From Escherichia phage ECML-359: a DNA stretch of 64,000 bases. Under the pieces are notes generated by a model. That model was not told the DNA's origin. It saw only the letters and a program-made list of their open reading frames with translations, and did no database searches. The position numbers and the translations under genes are program-made. How positions within the stretch are numbered: position 1 is the first letter of the stretch; each line of letters opens with the position of its first letter. Below, piece by piece: positions 47,430 through 50,426 of this stretch. The stretch is taken from sequence record OL631482.1. One strand, written 5' to 3'.

Positions 47430-48176
47430 ATGATTTTATCCGGAAGAACTGTTGATGAACTCAATGAAAAAGTCCAGGCTGCCTTGGCTAATAATTGGTA
47501 TTTGTTTGGTTCTACTATGGTGTTGCCGAATACCCCTACAGATAGCAAAGAGCGTTTTTTCCAAACTATGTCCAGCTCGGAAACTCAGATACCGGGCCCG
47601 CCTGGGCCAAAAGGAGACCCGGGTGTACCAGGACCAAAAGGAGACCCAGGCGGGGATGGAAAGTCTTCTTATCAGATATGGCTTGACTTGGGAAATACAG
47701 GAACTGTTGATGATTTTTTAACTGATACAGCAGGAAAGAGGGAAAAATCCGAGGTGTTTTGGAGTGGTATAAACGTTCTATTAACTAATGGTGTGACGTC
47801 AAACATAATTAGTGTTTTAAAGGGGATTCCGCCGACTGCAGGGACTCTATCTCCGTTTTTTAGAACCACTGATGATAAGTTGTGGCCATATAACCAAGAC
47901 AGAAGCCTAATGTTTAAACTCAACCTTATTGGTAATTTTACAGGAGCCTCGCAAGCTCGAAGTATAACATTAAATTTCGTTGGAACCAACGGAAACACTT
48001 ATATACAGAATCGTCCGGAAAATGCTACAGATATTTTGTCTTTTACAACGTTCTTTAGCATTGATAAAGATGGGGCAATGGCTACCAATGGTACAGCTAT
48101 AACTGTTATGCCAAATGGCGGCAACTTTACAATAACATCTGCATTGTTAGTAGCCGAACAAACAGTGACTTCATAA
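47430..48176 (+). CDS. plus-strand collagen-like repeat protein (248 aa)
   Basis: AAGGAG 7 nt before ATG; G-X-Y tract GPPGPKGDPGVPGPKGDPGGDG; locally GC-rich; faced by a convergent terminator. Confidence 0.6.
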   Translation: MILSGRTVDELNEKVQAALANNWYLFGSTMVLPNTPTDSKERFFQTMSSSETQIPGPPGPKGDPGVPGPKGDPGGDGKSSYQIWLDLGNTGTVDDFLTDTAGKREKSEVFWSGINVLLTNGVTSNIISVLKGIPPTAGTLSPFFRTTDDKLWPYNQDRSLMFKLNLIGNFTGASQARSITLNFVGTNGNTYIQNRPENATDILSFTTFFSIDKDGAMATNGTAITVMPNGGNFTITSALLVAEQTVTS

Positions 48177-48177
48177 A

Positions 48178-48199
48178 CAAAAAAGGGCCGTATGGCCCT
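48178..48199 (-). terminator. hairpin AGGGCC-gtat-GGCCCT with T run on minus strand
   Basis: Stops minus-strand transcription entering the plus-strand gene antisense. Confidence 0.6.
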
Positions 48200-48394
48200 T
48201 AGATTGCACTCCAAAAATTATGGAATCTTATAGTATTGATAGCCCAGTTAACAAACATGCGAGTTTGCTTGGGAGTTGGTTTGCATATGTACTTATTGTT
48301 GATTCGTCTGCCAGTTTCCCGACAGACTGCTTCGAGATACCAGCGCCGACCTTTATTAGGTCTTCCATACGATAAGAAGACCTTGATTTCCTGG

Positions 48395-49405
48395 TTATCG
48401 ATAATAGGAATTGTGGTTGTCAAGATATACCTCCTCAACAAACTTGTCCCAGAACTTCATGTCCACCTTCGCAGGCATACCATTCTTAGCAGCCTGGATG
48501 GCCAGGACTTCAACTTCATCAACAGTATTTTCCAACAGGCCTTGAACTACTTTGAAAGGCATATCACCAGCTTTTATTGCTTTAATAATAGAAGCATTTT
48601 TAAGTGGATAAACCAGGTCACCAGTTTGATAGATTTCCTTCAGCTGATATCCAGCTCGGTAAGCATGACTCAATGCTTTCCAGTCAATACCTTCATTGGC
48701 TTCAGCCTTACGAGCACGTTCACCATATTCGGCATCAAGTTTATTCAGAGATTGCTTGAGCTCGATTAAAGACAGGGTGGTTTGGTACTTACGTCCAAGA
48801 ACAGTATAGAACGTTTGAGGACCTGTTTTCTCATGGTTATGAAATACCCATTCACAGAACTCGTTTTCAGGGAGCCGGTGCTTAATATCTTCTACTTTAG
48901 TTCGACGTTGTTTAATAGAACCATCTTCTTGATAATCGACCCACTGTTCAGGAATCTGGTTAACAATTGTCAGTACACCACGCAGTGCAGCCAATCGAGA
49001 ACCTTTAACACCATATTTGGAAGCTTGCTTACGGACGTACCCCAAATAGGCTTTCATGTTAGTTGTATAGAACCGCGAACGGTTGTCTTGAATAAACTTC
49101 CATACATCTGGTAAATCGGATTTGACTACCAGGTCAGCCGGGGTGTGAATCATATCCAGGGCAACGGTTTCGCCTTCGGCAGCCAGTTTAAAGAAATATT
49201 TCAGACTGAATAATTCATGGTCGATATCGTCTTTTGTGTTTTTGGTAGCCGTGTTATTCGTGTTCAGGTTTGTATGATTCATCGCGGTTCCGAGCAGGAT
49301 ATCTCGCGGATGAGGAACAAAGATTTCTTTAAAATCAACATCAGATTCTGGGGTGCTTGTTCCATAAAGGTGGCTACCGAAGTAGCCTTTCATAATAGTT
49401 TTCAT
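48395..49405 (-). CDS. pol-beta superfamily nucleotidyltransferase (about 336 aa)
   Basis: GS-x10-DVD motif (FGSHLYGTSTPESDVDF) plus downstream acidic strand (VALDM); C-terminal helical region; GAGGA site; ATGA overlap with upstream gene. Confidence 0.6.
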   Translation of the reverse strand: MKTIMKGYFGSHLYGTSTPESDVDFKEIFVPHPRDILLGTAMNHTNLNTNNTATKNTKDDIDHELFSLKYFFKLAAEGETVALDMIHTPADLVVKSDLPDVWKFIQDNRSRFYTTNMKAYLGYVRKQASKYGVKGSRLAALRGVLTIVNQIPEQWVDYQEDGSIKQRRTKVEDIKHRLPENEFCEWVFHNHEKTGPQTFYTVLGRKYQTTLSLIELKQSLNKLDAEYGERARKAEANEGIDWKALSHAYRAGYQLKEIYQTGDLVYPLKNASIIKAIKAGDMPFKVVQGLLENTVDEVEVLAIQAAKNGMPAKVDMKFWDKFVEEVYLDNHNSYYR

Positions 49406-49854
49406 TCTTTGTCCTCGAAGTGGATTACTGGGCACATCTTAGATTTACGAGCTTTGATATATTGAATGAAAACATTTTCTTTAATTTCCTTTCCTTCACG
49501 TTTAGCTTTAATGCGTTCCCATTCTTTTTCTTCTTTACGTAAATCGTACCAGGCCCATAAATTCATTAGACCATACATTAGACCAAATGCTACCGTCAGA
49601 ATAAGAGCCAGTGTAGCTAGTCCTAAAATAAACCCTAAGCCTAAACCGACCGGGGTGCTTAATACAAAGAAATGCTCTAATACACCTGCACCCGCGACAG
49701 TTAATCCAAAAACCATACTACCGATAAAAACGGCACAAACAAAACAAGCCCAAACCATTTTCCAGAAATAAGCACACAAAGAGTGTGGACGAGAATGACG
49801 GTCATAAAAACGGTCGTGGAAACGAGCGTGCCATGAGTTTGTATTGATAATCAT
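49402..49854 (-). CDS. polytopic membrane protein (150 aa)
   Basis: His/Arg-rich N-terminus, 2-3 predicted TM helices, charged C-terminus; AAGGAAA site. Confidence 0.5.
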   Translation of the reverse strand: MIINTNSWHARFHDRFYDRHSRPHSLCAYFWKMVWACFVCAVFIGSMVFGLTVAGAGVLEHFFVLSTPVGLGLGFILGLATLALILTVAFGLMYGLMNLWAWYDLRKEEKEWERIKAKREGKEIKENVFIQYIKARKSKMCPVIHFEDKE

Positions 49855-49865
49855 AATAATTTTCC

Positions 49866-50426
49866 TTAAGAGTTCATAGTTGGGATAACAGAGTTCAGAT
49901 AAGAGACTAAAACTTTTAGCTCGTCCTTAGTAAATACCACTTCACTTTCGCCGTCATGTCTTTGGACAATAGATAACAGGTCACGGCCGTTATGTTGATG
50001 CACAGTTAATTCAGTATTATAATCTAGTTCCTCTTCATCGCCTTCAAACGTTTCACTAGAGCGAATCAGTGCATCTTGTCCCGGAACTTTCCATTCAACT
50101 TCCGGTTTACATTCTTCCTGGAAGAGTTTGAAAATACAATCAAAGAATTTATCAGAATCGCTAATGCTCAGGCATTCTATACCATTTTCCAGATTAAACC
50201 CATTTTCATTTTTATAGATATAAGCGTATAGCTCATCGTTAATATCGACAGGAGCACTATTACGTCCATTGAGATAGTCAGCTCTATCCAAAACCATTAA
50301 ATTATAAAGTGGTTTAATATCTTGGATAGTCAGTACGATTTTATCGTCTTCTTGACAAAGCTCGATTGCGTTATTAACCACTTCAGCAGTCAGTTCGCCA
50401 AACAATTCAGTTGTTTCAATAATCAT
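49866..50426 (-). CDS. acidic hypothetical protein (186 aa)
   Basis: Minus ORF directly upstream of membrane protein. Confidence 0.45.
   Translation of the reverse strand: MIIETTELFGELTAEVVNNAIELCQEDDKIVLTIQDIKPLYNLMVLDRADYLNGRNSAPVDINDELYAYIYKNENGFNLENGIECLSISDSDKFFDCIFKLFQEECKPEVEWKVPGQDALIRSSETFEGDEEELDYNTELTVHQHNGRDLLSIVQRHDGESEVVFTKDELKVLVSYLNSVIPTMNS

Follow-up and report, generated by a model that had tools for sequence, protein, structure and literature searches.

An NrdC.11-type RlaP nucleotidyltransferase of Escherichia phage ECML-359 and the membrane protein encoded beside it: neighbours rather than a conserved pair

Introduction

When the gene for a nucleotidyltransferase overlaps the gene for a small membrane protein, do the two form a functional pair, or do they merely share a place in the genome? 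The question is raised by positions 48395 to 49854 of a 64,000-nucleotide stretch of Escherichia phage ECML-359 (sequence record OL631482.1; the whole stretch is called the window below). Two open reading frames (ORFs) lie there on the minus strand, one for a membrane protein of 150 amino acids (aa) at 49402..49854 and one for a nucleotidyltransferase of 336 aa at 48395..49405, and the stop codon of the former overlaps the start codon of the latter in an ATGA (49402..49405, minus strand). A preliminary description, made from the letters of the window, gave this arrangement correctly and likened it either to a minimal nucleotide-signalling module, a cyclase with a membrane effector, or to the nucleotidyltransferases that modify tRNA or other RNA. 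We asked what the enzyme is, whether the two genes are conserved as a pair, and in what company the homologues of the enzyme are found in other genomes.

Results

The enzyme is 82% identical to T4 NrdC.11 (NP_049709) over all 336 residues. Pfam assigns it to RlaP (PF10127) with 45.2 bits against a cutoff of 23 (E 1.2e-11), residues 6-134 matching positions 23-142 of the 249 in the profile, and it matches phrog_388 ‘nucleotidyltransferase’ with an E value of 1e-129. PF10127 was found in all 240 enzyme homologues among the matches listed. On these grounds, together with the AlphaFold model described below, the enzyme is almost certainly the orthologue of T4 NrdC.11, a phage-type nucleotidyltransferase of the RlaP family with a DNA polymerase beta-type (Pol-beta) catalytic core, and the ORF at 48395..49405 is the nrdC.11 gene. 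Over 2.5 kb, the sequence of the locus shows 99.6% identity to Escherichia phage pEC-M719-6WT.2 and 85–95% identity to phages of the Gaprivervirus and Mosigvirus type, in which the gene is annotated nrdC.11; it matches the nrdC.11 region of phages SP18 and VR7. Many GenBank and UniRef orthologues bear the label ‘thioredoxin’, which we rejected as a name leaked from the nrdC locus, the protein having no thioredoxin domain. One NrdC.11 orthologue entry is misnamed ‘HNH homing endonuclease.’

The preliminary description had held that its view would fall if structure prediction did not support the nucleotidyltransferase fold, or if the pairing were not conserved and the enzyme matched a well-characterised housekeeping gene of T4. 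The match is indeed to a named T4 gene, but to an accessory one rather than a well-characterised housekeeping one. Searches with tblastn found homologues of the enzyme in 1518 phage records, from phages of Escherichia, Klebsiella, Aeromonas, Acinetobacter and Vibrio and, at 26–34% identity, of Caulobacter and Ruegeria; homologues of the membrane protein were found in 931 phage records. Because both genes recur so widely, chance is ruled out. Nor is such an enzyme the oddity in a lytic phage that it had been taken for: beyond the 1518 records, RlaP is described as the most prevalent end-restoring nucleotidyltransferase in jumbo phages, where its distribution mirrors that of RNA ligases (PMC7824862). 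The gene and the role proposed for it are already in the literature, and the window adds one more orthologue, not a discovery.

We next considered where the protein begins and whether its active site is intact. The list of ORFs contains a longer version with a GTG start at 49435 (346 aa). We preferred the ATG at 49405 to that start, because a Shine-Dalgarno-like GAGGA stands 6 nt 5' of the ATG (49412..49416, minus strand) and because distant homologues share residues 2–9, which make up strand 1 of the model; some database entries for the enzyme begin at Met5 (332 aa). In an alignment of 133 sequences with a mean column identity of 41%, whose members were gathered through a more distant viral homologue, residues G10, S11, D22, D24, D60, D62 and D84 are invariant, as are K243, H247 and R250 of the helical C-terminal bundle. 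The enzyme has the RlaP-type Pol-beta signature, a G-S followed about 10 residues on by D-x-D, with further conserved carboxylates on predicted strands of the core, and the Pol-beta active site reported earlier is confirmed. Translation, alignment and model place the motif G10-S11-x10-D22-V-D24 at 49334..49378 (minus strand). The invariant D60, D62 (strand 61–67) and D84, which alignment and model place within 49154..49228 (minus strand), are candidates for the third catalytic carboxylate.

The AlphaFold model computed from the 133-sequence alignment (mean predicted local distance difference test, pLDDT, of 89.4) has an alpha/beta core in which G10-S11 follow strand 1 and D22 and D24 open strand 2, at a strand 1/helix/strand 2 junction. 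After the core come a five-strand beta insert at residues 154–208 and a helical bundle at 213–335. The model shows a two-domain layout, a nucleotidyltransferase core and a helical C-terminal domain, with the beta insert in addition. The long helical C-terminal domain that had been described earlier is present at 213–335, but the region holds the beta insert as well. A model from a shallow alignment (24 sequences, at least 66% identity) was discarded for its pLDDT below 50 over residues 1–69.

Comparison of the model with the PDB by Foldseek gave weak matches only, all of the Pol-beta type: 3c18, the Hailong protein HalB and ANT(4'). The structural neighbours of the model are HalB, 3c18, MNT, KNTase and LinB. 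Searches of PDB sequences with the enzyme and with two profiles, including that of the 133 sequences, returned nothing relevant, and the likeness to HalB, seen through a predicted structure, is one of fold only. It had been suggested that the enzyme be compared with the CD-NTase, OAS, CCA-adding, poly(A) polymerase and AbiEii families, and none of them matched above threshold. No head domain of CCA-adding enzymes or poly(A) polymerases was found in Pfam, where NTP_transf_2 remained below threshold (E 0.058; 14.2 bits against a cutoff of 21), and no structural match to these enzymes stood in the Foldseek top lists. For CD-NTase, cGAS and OAS there was neither a cGAS/DncV-like fold nor a match to a family hidden Markov model (HMM), and AbiEii had no match in Pfam or PADLOC. 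MntA of NCBIfam was reached only below threshold (13.7 bits against a cutoff of 60). PADLOC gave no match for either protein.

In order to determine whether the two genes are conserved as a unit, as had been supposed, we examined the association from both sides. In the forward test, for which the enzyme led us to 48 viral loci, the membrane gene abuts the enzyme gene in 13, and the same ATGA junction is retained in these 13. In another 33 loci the two genes are separated by 350–1840 nt with one to five unrelated small genes, and two loci are without the membrane gene. The reverse test used 72 viral loci of the membrane family. A scan with a degenerate DNA motif located them and an HMM confirmed them; the scan samples only members with the W-H-Y and C-x-Y-F-W motifs. 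Among the matches listed, the enzyme was present in 3 of these 72 loci and missing from 69, and where at least 3.5 kb of downstream sequence could be inspected it was present in 2 of 29 and missing from 27. Yersinia phage phiR1-37 and Aeromonas phage CC2 have the membrane gene without the enzyme nearby. The enzyme in turn occurs without the membrane gene in T4, in the phage loci L011 and L050 and in distant phages: no membrane neighbour was found at the distant phage homologues, and the membrane family was found at none of 80 prokaryotic loci that encode the enzyme.

The two proteins have also diverged to different degrees, the membrane protein being 22–37% identical between genera and the enzyme 51–82%. 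Taken together, the forward and reverse loci, the lone occurrences and the unequal divergence lead us to conclude that the adjacency is a gene order passed down in one phage lineage rather than a conserved unit of two genes. The two proteins are very probably independent of one another. The ATGA overlap is unremarkable here, since the minus strand of the window has 15 such junctions, counting those that join ORFs of 70 aa or more. What stands at the junction varies as well. In T4, the HNH homing endonuclease gene mobD lies upstream of nrdC.11 and the membrane gene has been lost, and in a Mosigvirus-like locus (L006, 3237-4001) an HNH homing endonuclease is inserted exactly between the membrane gene and nrdC.11. 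Because the insert in that locus and mobD of T4 occupy the same place, the junction looks like a homing site; the target of mobD is listed as unknown (PMC2988022).

We then turned to what is known of the RlaP family. It owes its name to the fact that PF10127 genes are associated with genes for RNA ligases. Two family members from Pseudomonas, PfRlaP and PaRlaP, have been shown to add one or two nucleoside monophosphates (NMP or dNMP) to the 3'-OH ends of RNA (PMC12776372, a 2025 preprint). According to the same study, these two enzymes are inactive on DNA and on proteins and prefer Mn2+; E. coli proteins were not labelled by RlaP enzymes, which do label tRNAs and rRNAs of full length and can use any of the four nucleoside triphosphates (NTPs). 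When offered both, PfRlaP acts on the 3' end at an anticodon-loop break in preference to the acceptor-side fragment, and RlaP partly rescues the aminoacylation of a tRNA that lacks one anticodon-loop nucleotide (PMC12776372). The authors propose that RlaP is an antidote to nucleases that cut and then trim, such as RloC, and they put T4 NrdC.11 in RlaP cluster 5 and the measured enzymes in cluster 1a (PMC12776372). Among the papers searched, we found none with a direct test of NrdC.11. In T4, the segment from nrdC.11 to mobD.3 can be deleted (PMC9825161).

To determine the genomic company of the NrdC.11 type itself, we scanned prokaryotic genomes, one per species, with the diverse enzyme alignment. 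An earlier scan with patterns taken from T4-like sequences alone had found no loci. The diverse alignment yielded 80 loci in bacteria and archaea (L185–L264) that encode full-length NrdC.11-type homologues, 30–50% identical to the enzyme from residue 1 to about residue 330. Because the coverage reaches so far, these homologues share the C-terminal half of the enzyme; one of them from bacteria (L200) shows the same partial match to the RlaP profile. They are common in Desulfobacterales, Nitrospirota and Alphaproteobacteria and occur in some archaea. An RNA-repair gene, confirmed by Pfam, lies within 6 kb in 16 of the 80 loci: RtcB in 9, Pnkp with a ligase domain in 4, T4-type PNKP in 3 and Ro60/TROVE in 4, some loci having more than one. 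One of the four Pnkp genes overlaps the gene for the enzyme homologue. That the NrdC.11-type clade itself keeps company with genes for RtcB, Pnkp and Ro60 in prokaryotes, both bacterial and archaeal, is an observation new to this analysis. Of the two kinds of function first suggested for the enzyme, modification of tRNA or other RNA fits the Pfam assignment, the published biochemistry of RlaP and the RNA-repair neighbours of the bacterial homologues. Among the distant phage homologues, that of Ruegeria phage RpAliso (L063, 5001-6002; 26% identity) lies within an array of tRNA genes, between tRNA-Met and two tRNA-Tyr.

The membrane protein (49402..49854, minus strand) is a full-length member of phrog_944, which it matches over residues 1–150 with an E value of 3.1e-56; it has no family in Pfam or NCBIfam. 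It was described earlier as having a His/Arg-rich N-terminus and two to three transmembrane helices, and this proved accurate. Four His and four Arg fall within the first 26 residues, and a continuous hydrophobic stretch from about residue 27 to 101, with two Kyte-Doolittle maxima, is consistent with two or three transmembrane helices of an inner-membrane protein; Lys and Glu abound in the C-terminal tail. Searching 1.8 billion representative proteins with a profile gave at least 1134 cluster representatives at E≤1e-3. In 90 diverse members (mean column identity 20%), only C27 and C141-P142 are invariant; S7, W8, H9, L26, Y29 and K139 are nearly so, and the hydrophobic middle is kept in character only. 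Cys27, in the motif S-L-C-x-Y-F-W-K at the predicted cytoplasmic edge of the first transmembrane helix, is encoded at 49774..49776, and Cys141-Pro142, near the C-terminus in the alignment, at 49429..49434 (both minus strand). From this pattern we infer that both termini would be cytoplasmic and together form one small conserved unit, and the invariant residues at the two ends may make a metal- or thiol-dependent cytoplasmic clasp.

Members of the family range from 125 to 490 aa and may carry inserted transmembrane or coiled-coil segments or else a soluble domain at the N-terminus. Members of 220–490 aa, among them versions of about 470–490 aa (L074, L089, L098), have the same terminal motifs around the added transmembrane or coiled-coil segments. 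Versions of about 240 aa occur in L036, L039 and L051, some versions carry a soluble N-terminal extension of about 95 aa, and one Acinetobacter-type phage locus (L046:2712-3592) has two copies in tandem. Matches of the 90 members to oleosin, NIPSNAP, SieB, holin and ABZJ_00895 in Pfam and NCBIfam were rejected, each involving one or two members and being typical of hydrophobic sequence. When the genes around the membrane family in other phages were clustered, no informative partner proved to be conserved; most of the clusters stemmed from one subgroup, that with the versions of about 470 aa. The family is very large, fast-evolving and uncurated in Pfam, and no member has a described function.

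Both genes belong to one minus-strand unit, which runs from mobD.1 through the membrane gene, the nucleotidyltransferase gene and an ORF of the DUF7279 family to a terminator. mobD.1 (49866..50426; y05I-like) lies 11 nt upstream of the membrane gene and was identified by Pfam T4_y05I_N and T4_y05I_C and by the annotation of SP18. The last gene, a 74-aa ORF at 48199..48423 (or ..48441), matches DUF7279 in Pfam (E 1.8e-6) and phrog_8921 (E 1.5e-37) and overlaps the 3' end of the enzyme gene by 29–47 nt; its start is probably the TTG at 48423, behind a GAGGAGG. This ORF is kept in several relatives and is absent from the annotation of SP18. The unit is closed by a site resembling an intrinsic terminator (48183..48200, minus strand), a strong GC-rich hairpin followed by a run of T, and no sigma-70-like promoter was found between the membrane gene and the enzyme gene. 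On the plus strand, an ORF of 248 aa (47430..48176), with a collagen-like G-X-Y run and then an Sf6-type tail-needle-knob domain (PF16532, E 4e-32), converges on the nrdC.11 cluster, and the hairpin at 48183–48200 is common to both. This ORF is found in a minority of related phages, most matches to the locus beginning past its 3' end.

Discussion

These data suggest that the NrdC.11-type RlaP enzyme probably restores nucleotides to the broken 3' ends of RNA so that the phage enzymes Pnkp and Rnl1 can complete repair. The proposal reasons by analogy, both in lending the phage enzyme the activity measured for Pseudomonas RlaP and in naming its substrate in vivo. In such a mechanism, the enzyme would act on RNA without a template, with two metal ions held by D22, D24 and a third invariant aspartate (D84, or D60/D62). 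Its probable substrate would be the tRNA 5' half that remains once an anticodon nuclease of the host, of the RloC type, has made its cut and then trimmed the end, and phage Pnkp and RNA ligase 1 would then reseal an anticodon loop of full length. NrdC.11 would be an accessory counter-defence enzyme and not a housekeeping one. The membrane protein would belong to a separate family and would not work with it; the genes would be neighbours since both sit in the conserved nrdC–mobD early-gene cluster of T4-like phages, the ATGA overlap reflecting the usual packing of that cluster.

Several observations weigh against this proposal. The activity of the family has been measured for PfRlaP and PaRlaP only, and for no enzyme of the NrdC.11 type. 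The C-terminal half of the phage enzyme, including the beta insert, lies outside the RlaP match and differs from, or has strongly diverged from, that of the characterised cluster-1 enzymes, and the published crystal structure of PfRlaP, in which the nucleotidyltransferase domain and the helical C-terminal domain form a cleft, was not found among the PDB chains searched. No gene for an RNA ligase or kinase adjoins the enzyme gene in the phage; the sister phage SP18 does encode pseT and rnlA, which favours the repair reading, but about 87 kb from its nrdC.11. In addition, the membrane gene lies upstream of the enzyme gene, on the same strand, in 46 of the 48 viral enzyme loci, which could mean a functional link, and the nearest solved fold is that of Hailong HalB, an enzyme that works with a membrane protein.

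The last two of these observations also speak for a functional module in which the enzyme would produce a ligand, a nucleotide or an oligonucleotide, by which the membrane protein is gated or restrained, as HalA is by HalB, in the service of superinfection exclusion, lysis timing or anti-defence. The order of the genes, membrane gene first, and their ATGA overlap are those expected of such a module, and Hailong is a two-gene system of a transmembrane protein and a nucleotidyltransferase (review PMC13434031). However, the enzyme has no detectable similarity in sequence to HalB or to any PDB chain, even with the 133-sequence profile, and no PADLOC match. It is retained where the membrane gene is missing, in T4, L011, distant phages and the prokaryotic loci, most of the membrane family, among the matches listed, occurs without it, unrelated genes or a homing endonuclease stand between the two in 33 of the 48 loci, and the bacterial homologues adjoin RNA-repair genes. 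We consider such a module very improbable, and just as improbable the variant in which the enzyme mimics HalB and keeps a host Hailong channel shut. A still more specific form, in which an oligonucleotide made by the enzyme binds the Cys/His cytoplasmic face of the membrane protein, or an oligo-dA of the HalB type silences host Hailong, strikes us as extremely unlikely. The nucleotide-signalling module first suggested for this locus is not borne out: the membrane protein is a frequent neighbour of the enzyme in T4-like phages and not a module partner.

If the enzyme does act on RNA, it might still serve tRNA 3' ends, repairing or completing the CCA of phage or host tRNAs after damage by a toxin or exonuclease. 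T4-like phages encode their own tRNAs, and depositors named the Ruegeria phage homologue in the tRNA array ‘tRNA nucleotidyltransferase.’ The labelling of full-length tRNAs and rRNAs by RlaP and its acceptance of all four NTPs (PMC12776372) would suit this role, but PfRlaP preferred the anticodon-break 3' end over the acceptor-side fragment. With no match to a CCA-adding or poly(A) polymerase head in Pfam, and with bacterial neighbours that ligate RNA or heal its ends, functions that breaks require and CCA tails do not, CCA repair seems doubtful. Alternatively, the enzyme could nucleotidylylate a protein or small molecule, by MntA-like AMPylation of a host HEPN RNase toxin or by KNTase-like modification of an antibiotic-like compound. 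The faint MntA match in NCBIfam is in its favour, but that match falls far short of its cutoff, Pfam assigns the enzyme to RlaP, characterised RlaP enzymes left E. coli proteins unlabelled (PMC12776372), and the bacterial homologues associate with RNA-repair genes and not with toxin genes. We therefore regard this activity as improbable.

If NrdC.11 does refill the nucleotides removed by anticodon nucleases of the RloC type, it would supply the third, hitherto missing enzyme of the classic pathway by which T4 repairs tRNA with Pnkp and Rnl1, and would explain the answer of T-even phages to nucleases that evolved to defeat simple religation. The idea of a third repair enzyme has already been published by Burroughs and Aravind, in the form in which PMC12776372 and PMC7824862 cite it.

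Comparison with known systems places the enzyme and its neighbour as follows. KNTase ANT(4') and the MNT-type enzymes, whose substrates are aminoglycosides and HEPN toxins, have no family-level sequence match to the enzyme. Hailong HalB has about 217 aa, compared with 336 here, and no detectable sequence similarity to it; the pairing here is not obligate, as that of a Hailong operon would be, and HalA is a tetrameric channel with a cytoplasmic crown (PMC13434031), in contrast to the 150-aa hairpin-type protein of another family in the window. That protein shares its N-terminal S-W-H...S-L-C-x-Y-F-W-K and its C-terminal K-x-C-P with the other members of phrog_944, such as RB69 ORF104c, JS98 gp092 and phiR1-37 g265. 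T4 nrdC.11 has the same position as the gene described here, between nrdC.10/nrdC.9-type genes and mobD.1, and the same strand, but has mobD directly upstream where the window has the phrog_944 membrane gene. In contrast to Pseudomonas RlaP (cluster 1a), the phage type (cluster 5) has about 336 aa and the beta insert at 154–208, and does not lie between rtcB and rtcA. The two nevertheless belong to one family: both have a Pol-beta core at the N-terminus with three conserved acidic residues and, for the phage enzyme as predicted by the model, helices in the C-terminal domain, and a part in RNA repair, together with RNA ligases, is predicted for Pseudomonas RlaP as it is here.

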